The notes under the pieces were generated by a model. That model was not told the origin of the DNA. It saw only the letters and a program-made list of their open reading frames with translations, and did no database searches. From NCBI GenBank assembly GCA_902470835.1, contig CABRHR010000001.1, forward strand, positions 1 through 56,179: a stretch of 56,179 nt of DNA, written 5' to 3'. The DNA comes from an uncultured Collinsella sp. Its GTDB lineage: Bacteria > Actinomycetota > Coriobacteriia > Coriobacteriales > Coriobacteriaceae. The translations under genes were made by a program, and so were the position numbers. Below, in pieces: positions 2,554 to 44,852 of this stretch; the first letter of the stretch is position 1; each line of letters opens with the position of its first letter.

Positions 2554-2671
2554 GCGCCCGTGCGCTCGATGGATTCGGATGCCCGACAGAGGCTCCTTAT
2601 GGCTGCTTCCTTCCGGACCTGACCAGATTCGGAACATGTCGTCATCCGAACCCATCGAACGCGCTAGGCGC
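2554..2671 (-). ncRNA. ffs: Signal recognition particle RNA (small bacterial 4.5S type)
   Basis: Minus strand carries the conserved domain IV sequence GGTCAGGTCCGGAAGGAAGCAGCC at the tip of a long hairpin closed by GCGCC...GGCGC; U-tract follows (A-run 2548-2553). Confidence 0.95.
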
Positions 2672-16904: not shown

Positions 16905-16994
16905 GGAGAGATGGCAGAGCGGTTGAATGCGGCGGTCTTGAAAACCGTTGAGCGCGAGAGCGTTCCGGGGGTTCGAATCCCCCTCTCTCCGCCA
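16905..16994 (+). tRNA. tRNA-Ser (anticodon TGA), CCA encoded
   Basis: GGAGAGA acceptor stem, anticodon loop CTTGAAA, long variable arm, GTTCGAATC T-loop, TCTCTCCGCCA end. Confidence 0.97.
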
Positions 16995-30806: not shown

Positions 30807-31538
30807 ATGAGTTTGATAGAACAGTTGCGAGGCGCTATGGAAGAATCGATGCACGTCGGCGAGCAGGAAACGAGCCTACAGGACCAGTCCTACCACACCA
30901 TCCGACGCAAAATCGTCTACCTGGACTACAAGCCGGGCGAAAAGCTGGGCGTCAAGCAACTTTGCGACGACCTGGATATGGGGCGCACCCCTGTGCGCGA
31001 GGCACTGGTGCGTCTGGCGCAAGAGGGCCTGGTGCGCACCGTGCCCCAGAGCGGTACCTACGTCTCACCCATCAACCTCACCCTTGCCGAGAGTGCCTGT
31101 TACATCCGCGAGCATCTGGAAAAGCAGGTGATTGTGGAGTGCTGTGCGCGCGCCACGTCGGCCGGCATCGAGCAGCTCGACCGCGCCATCGCGCTGCAGG
31201 AAAAGGCCATGGCCGAAGAGGATCGCATCGGCTTCTTTTTGAGCGACAACCTCATGCATCACATGATTTTTAGCATCGCATGTCGCAGCACCGTGTGGTC
31301 GTGGCTCGAAGAGACCAATGCCGACCTGGAGCGCTTCCGCTGGCTGCGCGCTGCCACGCAGGTTCTCGACAATCAGGACATCGTGAACGAACACAAGCAG
31401 ATTCGCCGCGCTATCGCCGGTCGCGACCCCATCGAAGCGAGCTTTTTGGTCAGCAAGCACCTGCATATGATGTTCCGCAACCAGACCGAGGTTCTGGACC
31501 AGTTCCCCGAGTACTTCGAGACCAGCAAGCTCCGCTAA
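30807..31538 (+). CDS. GntR (FadR/FCD) family regulator; start may be at 30837
   Basis: PGEKL..MGRTPVREALVRL..PQSGTYV; EHKQIRRAI..HL. Confidence 0.92.
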   Translation: MSLIEQLRGAMEESMHVGEQETSLQDQSYHTIRRKIVYLDYKPGEKLGVKQLCDDLDMGRTPVREALVRLAQEGLVRTVPQSGTYVSPINLTLAESACYIREHLEKQVIVECCARATSAGIEQLDRAIALQEKAMAEEDRIGFFLSDNLMHHMIFSIACRSTVWSWLEETNADLERFRWLRAATQVLDNQDIVNEHKQIRRAIAGRDPIEASFLVSKHLHMMFRNQTEVLDQFPEYFETSKLR

Positions 31539-31598
31539 CCTGCCAAAAAGGGACAGGTTCATTTTGGCAGGTTTTATCTGGTCAAATGCAAAAAAGGC
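31537..31598 (+). repeat. GGGACAG-core hairpin repeat, near-copy of 44791-44852
   Basis: aacctgccaaaaagggacaggttcattttggcaggttttatctggtcaaatgcaaaaaaggc. Confidence 0.8.
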
Positions 31599-31652: not shown

Positions 31653-33500
<1,848 letters not shown>

Positions 33501-33652
33501 AAGATAAATCCCTTCGTTCGCGTGACTGCAAGACGTCCACGCACAAGGGGCGCTGAGACGTACAACGTTCGAGTATTGTACTCACGCAAGCGCAAGCTGA
33601 TATACCAGAAGTGGTATCTCAACTTAGATACCACCCGATGTACACACGTCCA

Positions 33653-33933
33653 GCCGGTCCAAACCACCACAAAGGGGACAGGTACCTTTGTGGTGGTTTT
33701 GGCCGGGGCGGCGGCCCGTCCCGGCGATTTATCTCGATCTGTAACATCTAGGACACCAAAAGCGGACTTACTGTTACAGATTGAGATTTTCCGTCCGACC
33801 TCGACGTTTTGTCTCAATCTGTAACAGGTAGAACCGGTTTTGCCGTCCAGATGTTACAGATCGAGACAGTTGAAGGCCGGAACAGCAAAACCGCCACGAA
33901 GGGAACTATCCCCTTCGTGGCGGTTTGGACGGC
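33653..33933. repeat. Composite ~280-bp palindrome: two inverted GGGA(C/T)AG hairpins flanking four alternating 15-bp motifs
   Basis: Hairpins 33661-33699 and 33888-33926; TCTCRATCTGTAACA at 33732(+), 33772(-), 33812(+), 33852(-). Confidence 0.9.
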
Positions 33934-33942
33934 GGCGTTTGT

Positions 33943-35559
33943 CTATGAGGCTTGCTTGGGGAAGGTCGTTGCGAGCGCTGCAACGGCAAGTCCTGCCACC
34001 ACGTAGAAGGCCGTGGCCGCAGACTTTGCGCGAACCTCGGCATTGTCCGCCAAGAGCTCCCCCTGCGCCTCGGACGCAACGCCCATCGATTCCAGGCGCG
34101 CCATAAACGCGGCATCACTCTCGTAGGTATAAACAACCTCTTCGAGCGCCGCTTTACTCTGTGTGTCGACCACATTGCTCGCATCAATACGTGCATCGAG
34201 ACCGGTGTTGACAGCGATAAGCAGGACCGAACCCATGGCGGCAGAGCCCAACGCGAGGCCCAGGTTACGCGCCGCACCCTGGATGCCGCCCGATTGCTGG
34301 GCGTCACTCGGCGGCACGGCGGAAGCGACAATGTTGTTGGCCTGCGAGTTTACCAGGCCAACGCCCACGCCACCAAAGAGCGTACCGACCACCATAATGG
34401 GCGTCAGCTCGGACGCGCGCACGCCAAACGCCATGCTCACACAGGCTGCCGCCATAAAGACATAGCCCGTACGCACCACAGACCAAGGCTTAAGCTGCGG
34501 AAACTTGCGCGGCACAAACATTGCGAGCACCAGCATGGGCACACCCGAGATGATACCCAAAAGCGCTGTCTGCATGCCGCCAAGGCCAATTACAAGCTGA
34601 TAGTACGAAGTGCCGACCAGACCCTGAGCGCCCATGTAGAAAAACGGCAGAGCAATGGCGATGACGCCGGAGCGAACGGTGGGATTGCGCACAAAGCTCG
34701 ACGGCAAAATCGCTATGCCGTGGGCGCGCTCCATCCAGTGCTCGACCGGAATCAGCATCACCAGCAATAGCAGGCCGACGCCGACAATAGGCAAAGCGGG
34801 AGAAATACCGGCGATCGTGAAGGGAGCCTGCGGCAAGGGAGCAAATACGCCCCAGGTCGAGATGCGCGAAAGACCGCACATAACGGCGAACAATCCCAGA
34901 GAGGCAATAACCGCACCCGGCGCGTCAAACTTGCCCGCGTGCAGCCCGCCACCCGTCGGCAGCTTTGCGCTCGCAACGAGCAGTGCGACAAAATAGGCGG
35001 CGAGCACGCCGAAGGTCACGCGAAAACCTGCGATATCGACCAGAATGCCCAGCGCGATAGGAATAATCGTCGCAAGCGCCGCCGATGCGGCAATCACGCC
35101 ATATGCCTGCTTGCGCTCCTCGCCTTCGTACAGCATGGACACCATGCCCAGTACCGAAGGGATAATGAGGCTTGCGCCCAGCCCGACCATCAGTCGGCCA
35201 CCCCAAATAAGCAGCTCAATGCTCGGTGAAAACGCGCACAGCAGCTCTCCCACCACAGCAAGCACCAATCCGGCACGGAAGTTGCGGCACCACCCGATAA
35301 CCATGCCGAGCAAACCGCTCGCAAGCATAAAGGTGCCCGCCATAAGCGAATAGACCGTGCTCGCCATCTGCACGTCCGAGAGCGGACATCCAAACACGCG
35401 CATCATCTCGGCCATGGCAACCGAAAACGCACCGTTGTCTGCCGAGGTACCCACCTGAGCGCATGCCAGCACGATCAGCGGCGCCAGTCGCGCCAAACGA
35501 GAAGGCGCCACAGGCTCCATCCCCGAGTTCGAAACCGCGCGATTCATGCACATCACCAT
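33943..35559 (-). CDS. MFS transporter (about 14 TM, DHA2-like); start uncertain (35559/35547/35520)
   Basis: Many TM segments; GRLMVGLGAS; paralog of 39281-40897. Confidence 0.88.
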   Translation of the reverse strand: MVMCMNRAVSNSGMEPVAPSRLARLAPLIVLACAQVGTSADNGAFSVAMAEMMRVFGCPLSDVQMASTVYSLMAGTFMLASGLLGMVIGWCRNFRAGLVLAVVGELLCAFSPSIELLIWGGRLMVGLGASLIIPSVLGMVSMLYEGEERKQAYGVIAASAALATIIPIALGILVDIAGFRVTFGVLAAYFVALLVASAKLPTGGGLHAGKFDAPGAVIASLGLFAVMCGLSRISTWGVFAPLPQAPFTIAGISPALPIVGVGLLLLVMLIPVEHWMERAHGIAILPSSFVRNPTVRSGVIAIALPFFYMGAQGLVGTSYYQLVIGLGGMQTALLGIISGVPMLVLAMFVPRKFPQLKPWSVVRTGYVFMAAACVSMAFGVRASELTPIMVVGTLFGGVGVGLVNSQANNIVASAVPPSDAQQSGGIQGAARNLGLALGSAAMGSVLLIAVNTGLDARIDASNVVDTQSKAALEEVVYTYESDAAFMARLESMGVASEAQGELLADNAEVRAKSAATAFYVVAGLAVAALATTFPKQAS

Positions 35560-35703
35560 CCGCTTTTTTCATTCCGTATATGCGGCAAGGATTTAAAACC
35601 AACCCTTCCCCTACTCATCATAAAAAATGCGTATCATGACAGGTGCCACGCTCTTTTCCAGATATACGGCAAATCGAGCTTTCTCGCGACCCTAGGGAGC
35701 CCC

Positions 35704-37536
35704 ATGAGCATCAATCAGCGACAAGCAAAGCTGCTTAAAATCCTGCTCGACCAGGCGGGCTACACCCCGACAGTCGATATCTCCGATGCCCTTGCTTGCT
35801 CGGAGCGCACCATCCGCAACGACATGCGGGCCGCTAACGCCTTCCTCGACGAAATGGGCATCCAAGCGGCAATTGTCTCCAAGCGCGGCAACGGCATCCG
35901 CATCGATGGCGACAGCACGCAGCGCGGTCAGATATCGGACATCATCAAGGAACGTTCGCTTTCCATGGACGCCGGTCTTGACCGCTTCTATCGCGGCATG
36001 TTGCTGCTCACCTGCGACTACCGGCACCAATACACCACCGAATCGCTTGCGCGGGCCATCCTCACCAACAAACAGCAGGCCCAAGACGACCTGCGCACAT
36101 GGAACGAGCTCATGACGCCGTTTGGAGCCCAAATCGTACGCGGGCGCCGCATTACGGTCGAGGGTCCCGAGGAGTACATCCGATTCTTCGTCGTCTATTA
36201 TCTGTTTGAGCTCGCGTCGACCGCCATGAAACGCCGCATTGAGCCGCAGCTCTTTGGCGGCAACGAGCAATTCTTCAACGACCTCATCGCATACGTCGAG
36301 CGCGAAAGCCGAACGCTCTATACCGACAACGCCCGCCACCAGCTTGCCGTCTACCTGCAGATTATGGTCCTGCGCATTCTTAAGGGCAAAGAGGTCGGTG
36401 GTTACACCTCGGCGATTCCCGTTGTGTACGACGACGTCGCCAACCGTATTGAGCAGCACTTTGGCATCGAGGTCTCCGCCAACGAGCGCGGCATCATCCG
36501 CGACCTCTTTACGGTCTCCACGCGCCGCTGGACGCCCGAGTTCCAGCGCACATATCAGCCCACACCCGAGGCGGCGCGCCTCACCGAGGAGTTATTCTGC
36601 ACTCTCGGCGAACGCTTTGGCACGCGACCGCCGCTTCATCTTGAAAAGCCCTGCGCCGCGCTCATCGAAGCCGGACAAACTCACATGCGCTATGAACGCG
36701 CCATCTCACTGCCCCAGGAAAACACCTGGACGGTGCGATACGAAAACATGGCCTCGTTTATGCGCCTGTCCGAGGTGCTGCGCGACGCGCCCGGCCTATC
36801 TGGGCTGAATCTATACCAGACCGACGTGACGCGCCTGGCGATGCTATTGCTCTCGTATATGGACGGCCTGTCCTCGCACGATCAATGGCGTGTCGGACTC
36901 GTGGTCAACTGCGGCATTGAGCAGGTCTTCTATGCGCGCGATCGACTTGAGCGGCTCATTCCCTGCATGCGGGTCGCGCGTGTGCTGACCGAAACAGAAG
37001 TCGCCGAGATTGAATCAGACCCCAAGCACAGCAGCCTCGACTTCCTGGTCTCATTCGACCCCATCAAGACGACGCTTCCACTCTGCGTGCTGAGCAATGC
37101 CATCGATGACGCCGATCGCAGCCGCATCGAGCTGCTGCTCATGAAGCTTGGATGCCCCCACGCACTCGACGACGCCCCGCTTGCCGGCGGTCTTCCCGAG
37201 CGCGAGCTCGATATCTCGCACGCGCGCATGCTCACGCGCACCCTTCACGCTGCACTTGTCGAAGACGGCCTCTGGCGTGGCACGCTCTCCGGCTTCTCGA
37301 ACACCTTCGAGATGCTGTCGTTCACGCACGGACCTTGGCTCTTGCTGACCGTATGTTCCCAAGATGTCGCTCAAACCGGGGCCGTGCATTACCGCGTGGA
37401 AACACGAGTCGGCTTTACCGGCGACCGCCTGCAACACATCCTGGTGCTCTGCGTCGCCCCAAGCGATGAGCGCGTCCTCACTCCGGCCACACAGCGCTTC
37501 CGCAAGCTCGCATCCGAGGCCGGTCTCAAACGGTAG
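35704..37536 (+). CDS. HTH + PRD-like multidomain regulator (BglG/MtlR/Mga-like)
   Basis: N-terminal ISDALACSERTIRNDM..SKRGNGI HTH; second HTH and GPEEYIR; degenerate EIIB-like VVNCGI; RBS AGGGAG. Confidence 0.75.
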   Translation: MSINQRQAKLLKILLDQAGYTPTVDISDALACSERTIRNDMRAANAFLDEMGIQAAIVSKRGNGIRIDGDSTQRGQISDIIKERSLSMDAGLDRFYRGMLLLTCDYRHQYTTESLARAILTNKQQAQDDLRTWNELMTPFGAQIVRGRRITVEGPEEYIRFFVVYYLFELASTAMKRRIEPQLFGGNEQFFNDLIAYVERESRTLYTDNARHQLAVYLQIMVLRILKGKEVGGYTSAIPVVYDDVANRIEQHFGIEVSANERGIIRDLFTVSTRRWTPEFQRTYQPTPEAARLTEELFCTLGERFGTRPPLHLEKPCAALIEAGQTHMRYERAISLPQENTWTVRYENMASFMRLSEVLRDAPGLSGLNLYQTDVTRLAMLLLSYMDGLSSHDQWRVGLVVNCGIEQVFYARDRLERLIPCMRVARVLTETEVAEIESDPKHSSLDFLVSFDPIKTTLPLCVLSNAIDDADRSRIELLLMKLGCPHALDDAPLAGGLPERELDISHARMLTRTLHAALVEDGLWRGTLSGFSNTFEMLSFTHGPWLLLTVCSQDVAQTGAVHYRVETRVGFTGDRLQHILVLCVAPSDERVLTPATQRFRKLASEAGLKR

Positions 37537-37592
37537 ACGGCGTGGGCGCCCATCGCGCGTGCCCATGCAAGCCTTCAAATACGCTTAAGCGC

Positions 37593-37632
37593 AAAGAACC
37601 CGTGACCGCCCCTGCAGCCACGGGTTCTTTTT
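37593..37632. terminator. Bidirectional terminator
   Basis: aaagaacccgtg / cacgggttcttttt. Confidence 0.8.
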
Positions 37633-37660
37633 AGCGTCTATGGCCTATGCCATGACAAAG

Positions 37661-39277
37661 CTATTTGCGCGTCCAGACAGTCTCGCCCTCTTTGACCGTC
37701 TCGAGAACGCGCAGGTTGCGCACCTCGTCGAGCTCGATCTTGAGCGGGTTCTTCTCGACAATGCAGAAGTCGGCCAGCTTGCCGGCCTCGAGCGTGCCCT
37801 TACGGTCGAGCTCGCCATACTGGAAAGCGCCGTTGACCGTGATGGCCTTCAGACCCTCGTACACGCTGATCTTCTGATTCTCGTCCAGCTGAGCGCCGCC
37901 CTTGGTGACGCGCTTGGCGGCGCACCACACAGCCTCAAAGAAATTGGGGCGCAGCACCGGCGTGTCGGTGTGGAAGGTAAACGGCAGGCCGCACTCCAGA
38001 GCGTCATGGCAGGCAGACACGCGACCGCCGCGCACGGGACCGAAGTTCTTAAGATGCACGTCGGCCCAGTACCAGATATGGCTGGCGAAAATCGACGGGA
38101 TCATGTTGATCTCGGCCATCTGCTCGTACTGATCGCGGCGGGCAGTCTGGCAGTGGATCATGACCGGGTGCAGGCTCGCTTTATCGGGATTAGGCGAATC
38201 CTCCAGCGCGCGCTTGTACACGCGCAGGTACTGGTCGGCAGCCGCATCGCCGTTGGTATGGGCGAGCAGCTGATGATTGCCGTCGATGGCCTTGCGCATA
38301 AAGTCATACGCGGCCTTGTCGGTCATGGTGCCATAACCGCAGTAACCCTCGCCCTCATCGCCGGGAGTGTAGGGCTCAGTCATCCACGCCGTACGACCCT
38401 GGGGAGAACCGTCAAAGAACATCTTGAGGCCGCCGATACGGAAGTGACCGGTGTAGTCCTGCGAGACAAAAGGCTCGTGGTCGGCCAAGATTTTGTCGAC
38501 ATCCTCGCCGTACATGGGATAGCTCACGACGTCCATCTTGAGCAGGCCCTTGTTCGCAAGGCCGCAGAACAGCGCTGCGAAGTCGGCGGTGGTAGCACCC
38601 TCCTGGCAGGTGGTGATGCCGTTTTCCAGGTAGATGTCCTGCATCTCGCCGATCATGACGTCCATGTCCATCTTCTGACGCGGCTGAATCACGGCAAAGA
38701 CCGGCCACATAGCGCCTGGCTCCTCGCAGTAACCGTCCGGCGTGCCGTCGGCCTCGCGGCCGTAGCGAGCGCCCTCGGGATCGGGAGTCTCGACGGTAAT
38801 GCCGGCAAGCTCCAGCAGCTTGGTGTTGGCAACAACCATGTGGCTCGAAGCGTGGACGGCGATAACCGGAATGGTCTCGCTCACGCGGTCGAGCACGTGA
38901 CGGTTAGGGTGCTCATGCTCGGCCAGGGAATTCTGGTCGTAGGAAACACCCATGATCACGCCGTCCTCGCCAATGCCGCGCTGCTCGGCAAAGGCAGCCA
39001 GACGCTCGACGATCTCATCGAAATCCGCCGCGCCGTTAAGGTCGGCAGCCACGATGTACTGCGTGCAGCCAGAGATGTGGCTGTGGGGGTCAATCAGACC
39101 GGGCATAAGGCAGGCGCCGTTGAGATCAATCTCCTCGGCATCCTCTGCCTGAGCGCGAGCCTCCTCGAACGAGCCGGTAAACGCGATGGTGCCGTCGTCT
39201 GCAACCAGCAGGGCCTCAAAAGTATCGCCCTCGCCGGTCATGGGAACAAAGTCGCCGTTAAAGTACAGCTTCTTCAT
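37661..39277 (-). CDS. Metal-dependent amidohydrolase (amidohydrolase-3 / YtcJ-like)
   Basis: MPGLIDPHSH, KMFFDGS, HTNGDAA, IHCQ, HTDTPV, GTLEAGKLADF. Confidence 0.92.
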   Translation of the reverse strand: MKKLYFNGDFVPMTGEGDTFEALLVADDGTIAFTGSFEEARAQAEDAEEIDLNGACLMPGLIDPHSHISGCTQYIVAADLNGAADFDEIVERLAAFAEQRGIGEDGVIMGVSYDQNSLAEHEHPNRHVLDRVSETIPVIAVHASSHMVVANTKLLELAGITVETPDPEGARYGREADGTPDGYCEEPGAMWPVFAVIQPRQKMDMDVMIGEMQDIYLENGITTCQEGATTADFAALFCGLANKGLLKMDVVSYPMYGEDVDKILADHEPFVSQDYTGHFRIGGLKMFFDGSPQGRTAWMTEPYTPGDEGEGYCGYGTMTDKAAYDFMRKAIDGNHQLLAHTNGDAAADQYLRVYKRALEDSPNPDKASLHPVMIHCQTARRDQYEQMAEINMIPSIFASHIWYWADVHLKNFGPVRGGRVSACHDALECGLPFTFHTDTPVLRPNFFEAVWCAAKRVTKGGAQLDENQKISVYEGLKAITVNGAFQYGELDRKGTLEAGKLADFCIVEKNPLKIELDEVRNLRVLETVKEGETVWTRK

Positions 39278-39280
39278 GAC

Positions 39281-40897
39281 CTACTCCTCCTCTTTGGAGA
39301 ACTTCTTGATAGCAGGGGTGGTGGCCAGGCCAAGCACGATGATGGCAGCGCCCACGTAGTAAGCGAAACGCGTGGAGTTGAAGCGGGACTGGGCATTGAT
39401 CTCGACCAGGGCGTCGCGCTCCTCATCGCTCATATCGATGTCCTTAATAGAAGCGCGGAAGTTCTCATCGGAGACGAGGTCGATATTGCGCTCGGAAATA
39501 GCGGCGACGGTGGACTCGGAAATGCGGGAATCGTTAGCGGCCGCATCCTTCACGGAGTTGGTGATACCAAAGAGCAGCACGGCACCCAGCAGGGCAATGC
39601 CGATAGCCTGGCCAACGTTACGCATGGTGGTCTGAATGCCGCCGGACTGGGAAGCGTCGCGCTCGTTCACGGCAAGGGCGACAACGTTGTTGGCCTGGGC
39701 GGAAACGATACCGGCGCCCGAGCCGGCAACAACGCAGCCAATGAGAATGCCCGGCAAGGAAGCAGCGTCGAGCGTAACGGAGAACGCCATGATGATCAGG
39801 GCGGCGGCAAGGGTGAGGTAGCCGACCTGGATGACGCGACGCGGGTTAGCCTTCGGCATGAACTTGGGGATACCGATGGAGAAGGCGAAGGTCGGAACGC
39901 CAACGACGATGGAGAGCACGCCAACGATAGCCGGAGACCAGCCAGCAACGAGCTGCAGGTAGGGGGCCATCAGAATGGACTGAACACCCATGAAGAAGAA
40001 CGTGATGGCGGAGGCGGCGAGACCGGCGAGGACCTGCGGGGTCTTGAGGAAGGACTGGGGCAGCAGGGCAAAGCCGTTCTTCTCCTCGACCTTCTTCTCG
40101 ACGCTGATCATAACGATGAGGATGATCACGCCCAGGACAGCCATGGGCAGGCAGGGGGAGATACCGGCGATGGTGAAGGGGCATGCCGGGAAGGGCTCGA
40201 CGAGGCCCCAAGCGGAGATGCGGGACACGCCGACCAGGAACAGGAACAGGCCGGTTGCGGCAAGGGCAACGCCGACGCCATCGAACTTGAGCTTCTCATC
40301 GGACTGCTCGATCTCGGGCAGCTTGAAGGACAGCAGGAACACGAGTACAAAGTAGGCGGCGAGGACGAAGAACGTCACGCGCATGCCGGCGGCCATGAGC
40401 ACGATCGAAAGCAGCAGCGGCAGCAGGGCGGAAAGGCCGGAGGCGGCGCCTATGCAGCCAAAGGCAAGCACGCGGTTCTTACCGTGATAGATCTTGGGAA
40501 CGAGGCCCAGAACCGAGGGAATCATGAACGACGCGCCGAAGCCCACGAGGGTACGGCCGCCCCAAATGAAGACGGTCATGTTGGGGGAAACGGCAAGGAC
40601 GACCTCGCCGGCGGCGCACAGCAGGGCGCCCATGCGGAAGTTCTTCTTCCAGCCGATGATGGTACCCATCATGCCACCGGCGATCATAAAGGCGCCGGCC
40701 ATGAGGGAGTAGACCATGTTGGCGAGCTGGATGTCGGCGGTGGTGGCGCCGAGGTCCTGCGTCAGGGCGGTTGCGGCGAGCGAAAGGGCGCCGTTATCGC
40801 CCGAAGTGCCCATCTGGGCCAGGATCAGAACGAGAACGGGGAGAAGCATGAACTTCTCGGCACCCTTCTCCTCTGCCACAGCTTTAGCTTTAGCCAT
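39281..40897 (-). CDS. MFS transporter (about 14 TM), co-transcribed with amidohydrolase
   Basis: GRTLVGFGAS, DGVGVAL, SGGIQTTMRNVG; RBS AAGGA; 3 bp from downstream gene. Confidence 0.9.
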   Translation of the reverse strand: MAKAKAVAEEKGAEKFMLLPVLVLILAQMGTSGDNGALSLAATALTQDLGATTADIQLANMVYSLMAGAFMIAGGMMGTIIGWKKNFRMGALLCAAGEVVLAVSPNMTVFIWGGRTLVGFGASFMIPSVLGLVPKIYHGKNRVLAFGCIGAASGLSALLPLLLSIVLMAAGMRVTFFVLAAYFVLVFLLSFKLPEIEQSDEKLKFDGVGVALAATGLFLFLVGVSRISAWGLVEPFPACPFTIAGISPCLPMAVLGVIILIVMISVEKKVEEKNGFALLPQSFLKTPQVLAGLAASAITFFFMGVQSILMAPYLQLVAGWSPAIVGVLSIVVGVPTFAFSIGIPKFMPKANPRRVIQVGYLTLAAALIIMAFSVTLDAASLPGILIGCVVAGSGAGIVSAQANNVVALAVNERDASQSGGIQTTMRNVGQAIGIALLGAVLLFGITNSVKDAAANDSRISESTVAAISERNIDLVSDENFRASIKDIDMSDEERDALVEINAQSRFNSTRFAYYVGAAIIVLGLATTPAIKKFSKEEE

Positions 40898-41135
40898 GTG
40901 TTGGTTCCTTTCTTTTCCGTTTCACGCGGGCATTGAACCCCTTTGAGCCCGCGCGTCTTGTCGAGGCAAATATAGGCTGGAGCGCAATACGGACGGCATC
41001 AGAGCCATTGCCGTAGATACGGCAATTCTGACGGCGGGCCTAAAGGGCATCTGCTTTTTCTCGTGAAAAGCAAAACGGCCGACCCCTTTGCTCGGGCCGA
41101 CCGTTTTGAAGAGAAAGTTTGATTGTTGGAAAATC

Positions 41136-41642
41136 CTAGGCAGTCGCGGCGACTTCCCCAGCGTCGACGCCCGCGGTGGTGGCACCGATGACGACGTAGC
41201 CGCTCACACAGCCGGCAACAGCGCACATAACGCCCTTAAAGATCATCATGCCCGTGCGCGAAAGCGGCAGCGGGAGCACAAAAGTGCAAAGCCATGCAAG
41301 GGGCGTGGCAACTACAAGGGCAATGATGCCAACGACGATCGACAGGGGAATCGACTTTTTGGGCAGCTTGGCCAGCCAACCATAGCCTTCGGAATTGCCC
41401 AGGTAAACGCCCTTGTTGAAATCCATCTTGGTCAGCGGCACCACGCACCAGGTCAAAATGAGACCAAGCAGGGCGCCTGTCAGCGCAATCTCCTCGACAA
41501 CCTTACCGGCGGCAAAGGTAATATCGGCGTCCCCCGCATGCATGCCCATAAAGATGAGCGCGTTAACGATGCCGTTGACGATGCCGTAACCGACGATGCA
41601 CTTGTTCTTAAGATAGCTCTGGTAGTCCTTTGCGGCGGCCAT
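41136..41642 (-). CDS. Hypothetical membrane protein (about 4 TM)
   Basis: ATG 41642 after GGGAGG; four hydrophobic segments. Confidence 0.78.
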   Translation of the reverse strand: MAAAKDYQSYLKNKCIVGYGIVNGIVNALIFMGMHAGDADITFAAGKVVEEIALTGALLGLILTWCVVPLTKMDFNKGVYLGNSEGYGWLAKLPKKSIPLSIVVGIIALVVATPLAWLCTFVLPLPLSRTGMMIFKGVMCAVAGCVSGYVVIGATTAGVDAGEVAATA

Positions 41643-41749
41643 ATGCCCTCCCCATTTTCGCAGTGTCATTTGTGTGGGGCCAGTGTATCCTCACGCATCA
41701 CGCCCGCTGACCAGAAGGATTGCCGTTTTTACGGCAACAGCCACACCCC

Positions 41750-41789
41750 AAACCACCACAAAGGGGGACAGGCACCTTTGTGGTGGTTT
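41750..41789 (+). repeat. GGGACAG-core hairpin, near-identical to 33661-33699
   Basis: aaaccaccacaaagggggacaggcacctttgtggtggttt. Confidence 0.85.
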
Positions 41790-41804
41790 TCAACATGGCG
41801 GGCT

Positions 41805-41860
41805 TTGACACCCCAGGGGCAGGCGATGCTACAATCTGGCTTGTACTTGAAACGCATCAA
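41805..41860 (+). promoter_or_regulatory. lacI-family gene promoter and candidate autoregulatory operator
   Basis: TTGACA (41805), extended -10 TGcTACAAT (41827-41835); pseudo-palindrome TTGAAACGCATCAA (41847-41860) with central CG. Confidence 0.6.
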
Positions 41861-41870
41861 AGGGGCCGCT

Positions 41871-42983
41871 ATGGCAAAGGTTAAGATCAGCGACGTCGCG
41901 CGCGAAGCCGGGGTTTCGTTGGGCACGGTTTCCAACGCGCTCAACCACCCCGAAAAGCTGCGCCCCGAGACCCTCAAGCTCATTAACGAAACCATCAATC
42001 GCCTGGGCTACCTACCCAACCAAAGCGCTCGTCAGCTCGCGGGCGGCGCCACCAAGTCCTTTGGCCTGGTGCTCCCCCGTCTCGATCACGGCTTTTCGCT
42101 CCAAATCGCCAGCGGCGCCCACAACGAGGCCCGCAAGCACGGCTACGACTTGCTCATCGCCAACGCCGATAACGACGACATTCTCGAGGACCATTACCTG
42201 CGCTACTTTATGGGCACCCAGATGTCCGGCGTCATGGTTCAGCCCATGGCGTCCCCCGACTGGCACCCCGCCATGACCAAGATGCCCGTGCCGATCGTCC
42301 ATCTGGACATCCATTGCTCCGGGCCCGGCTACTACGTGGCTGCCGACAACGAGGCCCAAGGTCGCATCATCGCCGAGCTCGCCATTGCCCGCGGTGCACG
42401 CCATATCACCGTTGTGGGTAGAGCAGCATTTATGCAACTCACCCTGCGCGTCCTTGGCATTCATAAGGCGCTCGCCCTGCACCCCGATATCAAGATCGAA
42501 GTCATCGACGCCGGCGAATGGAATACCGCTGCCGACGGCTACGGCATCGGTGCCCAAATCGCCGAGCGCCCCGCGGACGAACGTCCCGATTTTGTCGTCG
42601 GCCTGACCGATGTGTTGGCCTCGGGCGTCGTTTCGGCACTGGTCGACAAAGGCATCTCCGTCCCCGAGCAGGTTCGCGTGGCCGGATGCGACGGCAACCC
42701 GCTCGCTTGGAGCGGATCGGTCCCGCTCACTACGGTAGCGCCCCCGGGCTACGAGATTGGCCGCAAGGGTGTCCAACTGCTCATGGAGCAAATCGAGAAC
42801 AAGGTCCCGACAAAGACCAAGCATATCCACGTCGGCTCTGCAGCGCGCACCGTCACCGCAGCCACCACCGCGGAGGACATCAACCGCCAAGAACTCGTGC
42901 GGCCGTTCCTGCTGGAACGCGCCAGCACCCAGGCAAGCAGCCAGACCGACTCCACGGCCATCAACCTCGGCGCGTATCTATAG
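41871..42983 (+). CDS. LacI family transcriptional regulator
   Basis: KISDVAREAGVSLGTVSNALN..LGYLPN..ARQL; SVPEQVRVAGCD, LTTV. Confidence 0.93.
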   Translation: MAKVKISDVAREAGVSLGTVSNALNHPEKLRPETLKLINETINRLGYLPNQSARQLAGGATKSFGLVLPRLDHGFSLQIASGAHNEARKHGYDLLIANADNDDILEDHYLRYFMGTQMSGVMVQPMASPDWHPAMTKMPVPIVHLDIHCSGPGYYVAADNEAQGRIIAELAIARGARHITVVGRAAFMQLTLRVLGIHKALALHPDIKIEVIDAGEWNTAADGYGIGAQIAERPADERPDFVVGLTDVLASGVVSALVDKGISVPEQVRVAGCDGNPLAWSGSVPLTTVAPPGYEIGRKGVQLLMEQIENKVPTKTKHIHVGSAARTVTAATTAEDINRQELVRPFLLERASTQASSQTDSTAINLGAYL

Positions 42984-43913: not shown

Positions 43914-44792
43914 ATGATTTTAGACACCACGGCACCCGCAGAGGAGCTTCAAGACAAGCTATCGGCGCTCGAACAGCTGCTTTTGGCATACGGGCGCGTG
44001 GCTATCGGGTTTTCCGGTGGCGTCGACAGCAGCTTTTTGGCCGCCGTATGCGCCCGCATCATGCCTACCAATACCCTCCTCGTCCATCTCACCACGCCGC
44101 TCATCGGCACGCCCGAACAGGCCTCGTTTGAGCGGTCTGTTGATGGACAAGCCAATGAAGGGGCGCATTTTAAGCTCCCCGTGCTCAATCTTTCGGTCGA
44201 TCAGCTGCAGCTCCCCCAAGTAGCCTGCAACGATGCCAATCGCTGCTACCACTGCAAGCACGCTGGCTTTACCACCATCGTCAACCACGCCAAGTCGCTC
44301 GGCTTTCCCACCGTCATCGATGGCAGCAATGCAAGCGATCGCGGTGACTACCGCCCCGGCATGCGTGCGGCAGAAGAGCTCGGCGTACGCTCACCCCTTA
44401 TGGAGGTCGGCTTTACCAAGGACGAAGAGCGCGAGCTGCTGCGCGCATGGGGCTATCCCGTTTGGAACCTGCCGGCGGGAGCCTGCCTTGCCACGCGCGT
44501 CCCCACGGGCGAGGAGCTTACGCGTGAGAAGGTCGATTTGATCCGCGCCTGCGAGGATTACCTGCACGATCTTGATCTGGCACAGGTACGCGCGCGCCTG
44601 GTCGGCGGCTGCATGCATATCGAGGCCGCTCCTGCAGATGTCGCCAAGATTGCCGCCCTCGGCGGTGCCGCCGTCGACGACAAGGGCAAGACCCCGCTGC
44701 CCGCCGTTATCGAGTCCGCGCTGCGCGAGCTGGGCTGCGACCATATCTCCCCTGAGGTCACCCCCTACATCCACGGTGCCATGAATCAGTAA
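43914..44792 (+). CDS. larE: LarE-family ATP-dependent sulfur transferase
   Basis: PP-loop FSGGVDSS, RCYHCK, DGSNASD..DYRPG, SPL, ACLATRVP. Confidence 0.88.
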   Translation: MILDTTAPAEELQDKLSALEQLLLAYGRVAIGFSGGVDSSFLAAVCARIMPTNTLLVHLTTPLIGTPEQASFERSVDGQANEGAHFKLPVLNLSVDQLQLPQVACNDANRCYHCKHAGFTTIVNHAKSLGFPTVIDGSNASDRGDYRPGMRAAEELGVRSPLMEVGFTKDEERELLRAWGYPVWNLPAGACLATRVPTGEELTREKVDLIRACEDYLHDLDLAQVRARLVGGCMHIEAAPADVAKIAALGGAAVDDKGKTPLPAVIESALRELGCDHISPEVTPYIHGAMNQ

Positions 44793-44852
44793 CCTGCCAA
44801 TAAGGGACAGGTTTATTTCGGCAGGTTTTATCTTGGGAAACGCGAACAGGGC
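44791..44852 (+). repeat. GGGACAG-core hairpin repeat, near-copy of 31537-31598
   Basis: aacctgccaataagggacaggtttatttcggcaggttttatcttgggaaacgcgaacagggc. Confidence 0.8.

Follow-up and report, generated by a model that had tools for sequence, protein, structure and literature searches.

An array of alternating inverted motifs upstream of glmS belongs to an apparently undescribed intergenic repeat family of Collinsella

The array upstream of glmS and its relatives

Between the start of glmS and the stop codon of an MFS transporter gene, on a 56,179 nt stretch of contig CABRHR010000001.1 from an uncultured Collinsella species (assembly GCA_902470835.1; hereafter the window, with a G+C content of about 60%), lies a composite palindromic element in which four 15 bp motifs alternate in orientation between two outer hairpins. 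The question raised by this locus is what kind of element it represents; an earlier note on the sequence had proposed a non-autonomous mobile unit, a phased protein-binding or recombination array, or a structured non-coding RNA. The feature is a two-unit member of a multi-copy intergenic Collinsella repeat family, and amongst these candidates a phased protein-binding array fits best and a structured RNA worst, whilst the mobile unit is possible though less likely. In the human gut, few actinobacterial genera are as prevalent and as rich in species as Collinsella, and its non-coding genome is essentially uncharted.

The four motifs and their exact 40 bp pitch are as the note described, all being exact copies of TCTCRATCTGTAACA. 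The first, TCTCGATCTGTAACA, at 33732-33746 (+) and the second, TCTCAATCTGTAACA, at 33772-33786 (-) open and close unit 1, whilst the third, TCTCAATCTGTAACA, at 33812-33826 (+) and the fourth, TCTCGATCTGTAACA, at 33852-33866 (-) bound unit 2, the last marking the end of a 135 bp array. All three intervening spacers are 25 nt long. The spacers within units are termed A-type: the first (33747-33771), assigned from the sequence and the family profile, has a central A tract with TAG and CTA-like ends, and the second (33827-33851) has a central T tract. The B-type spacer between the units (33787-33811) has T-rich ends on the plus strand. No further copy of TCTCRATCTGTAACA with up to two mismatches was found in the 56 kb, the sole other match requiring three; the 8-mer core, CTGTAACA, occurs four times in the window against an expectation of 0.66, a count reached by none of 100 shuffled sequences. 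A profile built from 464 units has a single match in the window, at 33720-33878.

A repeat finder pairs 55 nt arms at 33732-33786 and 33812-33866, which are 76% complementary, and the predicted fold of 33727-33871 is, as had been anticipated, a single long hairpin on either strand (-80.4 and -83.2 kcal/mol; z of about -13.5). The accompanying claim that spacers 1 and 3 are diverged reverse complements of one another is less well founded. Aligned without gaps, spacer 1 is 48% identical to the reverse complement of spacer 3, a level matched or exceeded by 70% of random pairs of family spacers in their better orientation; hence the likeness reflects a loose consensus shared by spacers across the family, rather than a specific inverted duplication.

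Relatives were retrieved by a pattern scan of species-representative genomes using the inner 10-mers of the inverted pair (20 specified bases, 26 gap lengths), for which about 14 chance matches had been estimated beforehand by our own calculation. The note had allowed for the element being unique; instead, there are at least 136 array loci, on at least 120 contigs, from at least 112 assemblies. Family statistics given here rest on the loci among the matches listed, which carry L-numbers as labels. Among the matches listed, 120 of the 136 titles name Collinsella, the remainder being 'uncultured bacterium' (14), 'bacterium' (one) and 'Acutalibacteraceae bacterium' (one). The Acutalibacteraceae-titled contig (L041) carries two typical arrays with Collinsella-like flanks, and is probably mis-binned Collinsella.

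The only match in a plasmid collection was NZ_OY725717.1 (L137 and L139-L142), deposited as 'plasmid 6' of C. aerofaciens TSDC17.2-1.1. With a length of 899,693 bp, and carrying ribosomal protein genes, recA, ftsK, rpoZ, mreB-type genes and aminoacyl-tRNA synthetase genes, it looks like a piece of chromosome. Twenty-six places in this record match the array and 20 match the hairpin, although, with an element that is palindromic, these 26 places may correspond to only about half as many arrays. Their density is uneven. The 56 kb window has a single array, and so does a 40 kb stretch of NZ_OY725717.1, in which the array, unannotated in RefSeq, separates dxs from a glutamate ABC transporter gene; the first 200 kb of that record have no array but contain one hairpin of the type termed type 1 below.

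The earlier suggestion of an undescribed system is upheld by these searches, the family being apparently undescribed and Collinsella-wide. A phage collection contained no match to the element. Searching the whole window against Rfam at the gathering threshold gave no match at the element and no glmS ribozyme, and a search of 33450-34000 at E values of up to 10 gave at best 24.9 bits, against a gathering threshold of 80, to a miRNA model. Literature searches on intergenic, palindromic, inverted or extragenic repeats of Collinsella and the Coriobacteriia yielded no description of the element, and those using the two 10-mer motif strings returned only primers and one unrelated M. tuberculosis CRP site. 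A catalogue of RNA motifs from microbiomes, in its available part, lists many Collinsella RNA candidates but gives no searchable sequences for them (Fremin & Bhatt 2021; PMC8040213); neither motif string occurs in eight files of its supplement.

Architecture, inheritance and context of the arrays

In the profile of 598 unique oriented units, a unit has two 15-mers, the second inverted, on either side of a 25 nt spacer, and its short flanks are rich in A/T. Units follow one another head to tail with a period of 80-81 bp, and motif orientation alternates strictly at the 40 bp pitch; start-to-start spacings of the core motif are 33 and 47-48 in every locus, with between 2 and 16 motifs per array. 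The first motif of an array is a plus motif and the last a minus motif, so that arrays contain only whole units, and their lengths fall into classes of 55, 134-136, 215-216, 294-297, 376-377, 458 and 618 bp, the commonest being 135-136 and 215-216 bp. The 15-mer is near-invariant save at position 5 (A 0.48, G 0.51; hence R, a purine) and position 4 (C 0.82). Its outer TCTC, which lies outside the search pattern, has frequencies of 0.99, 1.00, 0.99 and 0.82. Beyond the 15-mer there is a W (A or T) tract at -11 to -9 and then R at -8, and in many copies the inverted repeat extends into flanking GTTTG and CAAAC sequences. Within the A spacer are found TAG at +10 to +12, a WWW tract at the exact centre and CTA before the partner motif, the other positions being G+C-rich and variable.

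Spacer length is held almost exactly within units: among 319 instances there are 244 distinct A spacers, 242 of 25 nt and two of 26 nt. B spacers are of 25 nt (96), 26 nt (60) or 24 nt (4), and have A-rich or T-rich ends whose orientation agrees within an array (aa 17, tt 10, at 2). A spacers follow no such orientation rule in their central tract (A..A neighbours: aa 41, ta 26, at 25, tt 15). Across 138 complete 80 bp units, the W content of spacer positions has its top harmonic at 10.0 bp (power 24.9, next 14.4).

Orthologous arrays in different species have the same spacers in the same order, with differing numbers of units; the dxs site, for instance, has one, two or three. In 87 flank-anchored orthologous pairs, the length differences were 0 (38 pairs), 1-2 (4), 79-82 (25), 159-161 (18), 402 (1) and 482 bp (1), a difference of about 40 bp never being observed. 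Divergence, measured in 87 orthologous pairs aligned end to end, was 3.9% (71/1800) in the outer TCTC and 5.3% (76/1439) in the inner 10-mer of copies outside the exact search matches; the figure of 0.9% (27/2998) for copies within those matches reflects ascertainment, as they were selected by exact match. By comparison, it was 17.6% (79/450) at the R position, 14.9% (1313/8808) in spacers and 9.1% (1892/20688) in the 120 bp flanks. Motif divergence was below spacer divergence in 74 pairs and above it in six. Since adjacent spacers are no more alike than random family pairs (1/109 exceeded the 99th percentile of the random pairs), most units must be old, yet the motif and spacing persist. Hence the note was correct in stating that motif and spacing are conserved whilst spacers drift.

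Its further claim, that pairing is conserved too, found no support. The R positions of paired arms are concordant in 141 cases and discordant in 114 across A spacers, and concordant in 55 and discordant in 101 across B spacers; no covariation between arms was detected at the variable positions -3, -4 and -8, and variants at position 4 do not co-occur. Spacer self-complementarity falls below that of shuffled controls at most positions (z down to -10). Given arms without covariation and spacers without self-complementarity, arm pairing is not what is preserved. Nor was there any sign of the inversion of internal segments that had been raised: of 132 spacers in 38 equal-length flank-anchored orthologous pairs, 120 were in direct orientation, 12 matched in neither orientation and none was inverted.

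Some arrays at unrelated loci are related. The window copy is 79% identical to L094, which lies at an unrelated locus adjoining a tRNA gene, the aligned 204 nt extending from the left hairpin as far as the last motif. Spacer identities of 0.67-0.71, against a median of 0.46, are found between the window and both L094 and L041, and between two arrays on one contig (L031), in a list of high-identity spacers that includes some orthologues missed by the ungapped flank test. At L010 (2600-5005), two arrays 1.7 kb apart have paralogous left flanks, each comprising the 3' end of a gene, a hairpin and the array, which points to a tandem duplication that may have carried the array along; this region is partly inverted relative to L028. 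An 880 bp difference between L058 and L031 beside an array was considered as a mobile element and rejected, being an ordinary phosphoglycerate mutase-type gene.

Gene contexts were assigned using a simple gene caller based on G+C content at third codon positions, for which the window served as a check. All 80 unique arrays fall outside called genes, their neighbours being divergent in 21 cases, co-directional in 20 and convergent in 20, with 19 unclassified. The 162 flanking proteins form 50 families, 39 of which have Pfam domains, including Nramp, glutamate synthase, DXP synthase, ClpB, RF3, GH1, PTS and LacI, DeoR and GntR regulators; no transposase, recombinase or Cas protein was found among these 39. 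The arrays thus adjoin about 50 unrelated gene families at some 25-30 distinct sites, and glmS orthologues account for just three of the 136 loci among the matches listed, leaving no support for a particular link to glmS.

Some genes have arrays on both sides. One is an Nramp gene; another (L047, 3054-4148; also L014, L022, L063 and L066), with arrays on either side in five genomes, encodes a 364 aa protein without a Pfam match, the C-terminus of which may resemble a restriction endonuclease-like fold.

Comparison with known systems and candidate explanations

Of the systems with which the arrays can be compared, the family works most like the bacterial interspersed mosaic elements (BIMEs) of Proteobacteria such as enterobacteria and pseudomonads, although it fails the definition of their repetitive extragenic palindromic (REP) sequences on three points: palindrome, head and compensatory maintenance. 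Clusters of REP sequences in BIMEs have regularly spaced copies in alternating orientation and are reported to be protein-binding sites, according to the available part of one survey (PMC2817692). The Collinsella arrays are likewise extragenic and multi-copy, with alternating, regular spacing and a number of units that varies between relatives, and they too form mosaics with another module, in this case a GGGACAG-loop hairpin. However, their spacers vary in sequence, their host is an actinobacterial genus, and they are as frequent in divergent promoter regions as elsewhere. A REP sequence is a compact imperfect palindrome of 20-40 nt with a short non-complementary middle, as described in the accessible portions of two sources (PMC2817692; PMC3733652), whereas the Collinsella 15-mer is not self-complementary and has its partner 25 nt away. 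In the 598-unit profile it carries no GT(A/G)G or CGTC head, and only a minority of spacers open with GGTAG (GG at +8/+9 in 76 of the 598); and there are no compensatory mutations at the variable positions of its arms. The 2010 survey, as far as its available text extends, records REP sequences and their associated transposases (RAYTs) only in Proteobacteria (PMC2817692), and neither Actinobacteria nor Collinsella is mentioned in the available texts of PMC2817692 and PMC3733652. A tblastn search of the plasmid collection with E. coli RayT matched 35 records, none of them from Collinsella, though the 900 kb record NZ_OY725717.1 was included.

The arrays resemble REP doublets forming hairpins (REPINs) in that two inverted arms around a spacer form the unit, inheritance is vertical and there has been some duplicative spread to new loci. 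In a REPIN, however, the arm is a REP hairpin and the whole sequence is conserved, whilst the Collinsella unit conserves only the 15-mer and the spacing, and no RAYT homologue was detected in the 900 kb searched. The 15 nt arms, many of them extended by GTTTG and CAAAC, are also reminiscent of the terminal inverted repeats of MITEs, or miniature inverted-repeat transposable elements. [quoted passage not shown]

Three further systems are comparable in part. In the intergenic mosaic elements of Neisseria, short dRS3 repeats, which are targets for phage integration, separate variable repeat families of 50-150 bp; the alternation of a short conserved repeat with variable segments in intergenic DNA is common to both, whereas families of 50-150 bp and phage targeting were not seen in these arrays. 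STAR elements of Staphylococcus aureus are G+C-rich direct repeats with conserved motifs at intervals of about 40 nt and variable sequence between, but the Collinsella motifs, at similar intervals, strictly alternate in orientation. Plasmid centromere-like and iteron arrays are phased protein-binding repeats present once per replicon beside partition or replication genes. They share with our working model for Collinsella the exactly phased tandem sites that would assemble a nucleoprotein complex, although the Collinsella family occupies tens of chromosomal sites with no dedicated neighbouring gene.

The explanation that we prefer, at about an even chance of being right, is that this is a BIME-like dispersed repeat in which the 15-mers are putative phased double-stranded binding sites for a protein, a mechanism that we infer from the sequence comparisons. 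Recognition of the 15-mer as double-stranded DNA in phased arrays is suggested by the exact spacing, by the conservation of sequence rather than pairing and by the W tract on each dyad, as well as by the 10 bp periodicity of A/T content in spacers, the occurrence of arrays in all intergenic contexts and the combination of saturated spacers with intact motifs. A sequence-specific protein site would comprise the 15-mer, the adjacent W tracts and the TAG at +10 to +12, which is weakly conserved. The two-fold axes at the centres of both spacer types would bring protomers into contact head to head and tail to tail, and the 40 bp pitch and A/T patches about every 10 bp would place all sites on one face of the helix, such that a bent or wrapped nucleoprotein complex could form. 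Rather than regulating glmS specifically, this complex might shape chromosome architecture by forming a topological or transcriptional boundary. Unit number would change through recombination or slippage between the direct 80 bp repeats, and whole composites would occasionally be copied to new loci.

A near-invariant 15-mer at an exact pitch, present at tens of intergenic sites per genome in more than 100 species-level genomes, implies a conserved trans-acting partner. A bolder version, which we consider doubtful, is that the arrays are assembly platforms for a putative undescribed DNA-binding protein specific to Collinsella, which would wrap DNA as a head-to-head and tail-to-tail polymer, each 40 bp taking one protomer and each 80 bp unit eight helical turns, and so set tens of fixed boundary points, architectural or topological, on each chromosome, the polar GGGACAG hairpins being a co-evolving module. 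If true, such a polymerising protein would constitute a chromosome-organising system without a described counterpart in the Actinomycetota. The partner protein, once found, would offer a handle either on nucleoid organisation or on a new mobile-DNA mechanism in the Coriobacteriia, and the polymorphism of 80 bp unit number at fixed loci is a ready-made marker for strain typing.

Several considerations weigh against recognition of the motifs as protein sites. Retrieval by an exact 20 nt pattern inflates the apparent conservation of the inner 10-mer, an effect that the outer TCTC and the non-matching copies escape only in part; gene conversion among copies could also keep motifs alike without selection. 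When the motifs are included, the 10 bp harmonic ranks only fourth, and it comes from a single averaged profile. The gene caller is crude, and orthologous loci are counted repeatedly in the tally of contexts. Paralogous composites at unrelated loci represent duplicative spread, which a selfish element explains equally well, and 11 of the 50 neighbour families have no Pfam match, such that a novel enzyme could be among them.

The main rival is accordingly a selfish element similar to a REPIN or MITE, which we regard as possible though unlikely: a single-copy transposase encoded elsewhere would copy the unit, or the composite of hairpin and array, recognising the arms or the polar hairpin, perhaps as single-stranded DNA, and the motif would stay conserved because the enzyme needs it. 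This would account for arrays ending in whole inverted-repeat units, for the extension of the inverted repeat into the GTTTG and CAAAC flanks, for the polymorphism of unit number between species, for composites at unrelated loci that share hairpin, linker and spacers, as the window does with L094, and for the orientation of hairpins being tied to the array (21 of 23). REPINs are also vertically inherited and long-lived, according to the available parts of two studies (PMC3337134; 10.1101/2022.05.22.493013). Yet no transposase was found among the 39 Pfam-annotated neighbour families, and the search with E. coli RayT gave no Collinsella match in the plasmid collection, the 900 kb record included. 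The motif is absent from the ends of three insertion sequence copies (two IS21, one IS30) in 200 kb of C. aerofaciens, and the window copy shows no evident target-site duplication; T-rich pentamers do recur to either side of units, as part of the repeat itself. An exact 25 nt loop would be unusual for known hairpin-recognising transposases. Finally, functionless relics should decay evenly, whereas the spacers of old units are saturated and their motifs are not, and there are no compensatory changes between the arms.

Less probable still, and distinctly unlikely, is a structured RNA, in which arrays would be transcribed and their 15 bp stems would serve as stabilisers of mRNA 3' ends, RNase III sites, terminators or a small RNA. 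The predicted folds are very stable on both strands (-80 and -83 kcal/mol; z of about -13), 40 of the 61 classified arrays lie 3' of at least one gene, and, where the flanking genes are co-directional, the A-rich polarity of B spacers agrees with the sense strand in 12 cases against four, orthologues among these not being independent. The other 21 of the 61 lie between divergent genes, and such a presence in divergent promoter regions is hard to reconcile with a purely RNA-level role. Moreover, the arms do not covary, and the R position drifts like the spacers without compensation; the spacers avoid self-complementarity, loop length is set to the exact nucleotide, the element has the same symmetry on either strand, and no Rfam family reaches its threshold.

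An array of the inverton or shufflon kind, in which a recombinase would flip segments between inverted 15-mers, is very improbable. The repeats are indeed inverted, and the central tract of A spacers points either way, but none of the 132 orthologous spacers is inverted, B spacers are co-oriented within arrays, no recombinase gene adjoins any array among the Pfam-annotated neighbours, and a 25 bp segment is too short for known invertases. The most remote of these possibilities is that a local transcription factor binds the array as an operator dedicated to glmS or the MFS gene. In its favour, the window copy is 232 bp upstream of the glmS start, a position at which three other species have kept it. 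Against it, arrays of this family adjoin about 50 unrelated gene families at some 25-30 distinct sites, and the invariant part of the glmS upstream region consists of different palindromes, at 33594-33634. Hence the RNA, inversion and glmS-operator models are each contradicted by at least one direct test.

Outer hairpins and neighbouring sequence

The hairpins on either side of the array belong to a second repeat family. The left one (33654-33706, +), of type 1, has a stem of CCACCACAAAGG and CCTTTGTGGTGG with 22 nt arms that are 91% complementary, and a loop, GGGACAGG, reading toward the array; its predicted fold has an energy of -38.2 kcal/mol (z -4.9), and it is kept in three orthologous loci. 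The right one (33888-33926, -) is an inverted copy with a diverged loop and 16 nt arms that are 100% complementary (-32.9 kcal/mol, z -6.2); it lies 17 nt beyond the MFS stop codon, with a T run after it on the minus strand. As had been proposed, the two are mutual inverted copies (84% identity over 45 nt, 33657-33701 and 33886-33930) with preserved stems, the A/G and T/C differences between them leaving both intact. In the linker between the left hairpin and the array is a short G+C-rich hairpin (33702-33725, +), detected by the repeat finder and matching a scan for terminator-like structures, which is conserved in orthologues of the glmS locus; related linkers are present in L094 and L124.

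After the copies at 33659-33701 and 33888-33926, the third and last of type 1 in the window, at 41749-41790 (+), is solitary. It sits in the gap between two divergent genes, one starting at 41669 on the minus strand and the other at 41872 on the plus strand, and cannot be the terminator of either. Two type 2 hairpins, at 31537-31573 and about 44790-44836, have a different stem (AACCTGCCAAAA and TTTTGGCAGGTT) with the same GGGACAGG, and begin at the stop codons of two plus-strand genes, followed by a T run. Type 2 hairpins also adjoin arrays in L003, L013, L029, L057 and L074.

Using a conservative search for the loop plus stem, GGGACAG-loop hairpins were found within 150 bp of 24 of 158 unique array ends, at distances of 7-105 bp; conversely, 22 of the 29 hairpins in array-centred loci sit within 150 bp of an array. 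Of 23 hairpins adjacent to an array, 21 have the loop sequence GGGACAGG when read toward it. That these might be inward-facing terminators was considered and dropped, as the stronger T run is as often on the far side as on the array side (9 against 9, with 5 equal). The composite nature of the element, recognised from the window copy alone, extends to other loci: the complete hairpin-array-hairpin arrangement recurs in L136, and a hairpin with an array in L094, L124, L092, L083 and L127. At the glmS site, the two-unit array and both hairpins are conserved in three other species.

The gene downstream of the element is glmS (31653-33500, -), with SIS, GATase_6 and GATase_7 domains, and that upstream encodes the MFS transporter (33943-35559, -), with an MFS_1 domain; the named relatives of the latter are from Collinsella, with 67% identity to that of C. 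intestinalis, and unnamed sequences reach 98%. Between the element and glmS are nested palindromes at 33594-33634, TGATATACCA-GAAG-TGGTATCTCA and GTGGTATCT-N6-AGATACCAC, which, unlike the array spacers, are invariant in all four aligned species, and are probably the real operator or leader of glmS.

On the other side, a segment of about 7.8 kb (33934-41748), containing the MFS gene, a Mga-like regulator and others, is bounded at both ends by copies of the GGGACAG hairpin family. In L089, and in L128 at its start, the sequence to the right of the right hairpin runs into the equivalent of about 41800-41875 of the window; as the two sides are joined there, the segment is an insertion or deletion difference between species. 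The arrays and their companion hairpins hence mark at least one boundary of variation in gene content.

At 37640-40936 (+), an open reading frame of 1098 aa without a Pfam match has the codon-position G+C pattern of an antisense frame, whilst two open reading frames of 538 aa each, at 37661-39277 and 39281-40897 (-), have the pattern of real genes. The only Rfam matches in the window at the gathering threshold are a bacterial small signal recognition particle RNA at 2563-2658 (-) and a tRNA at 16905-16991 (+).

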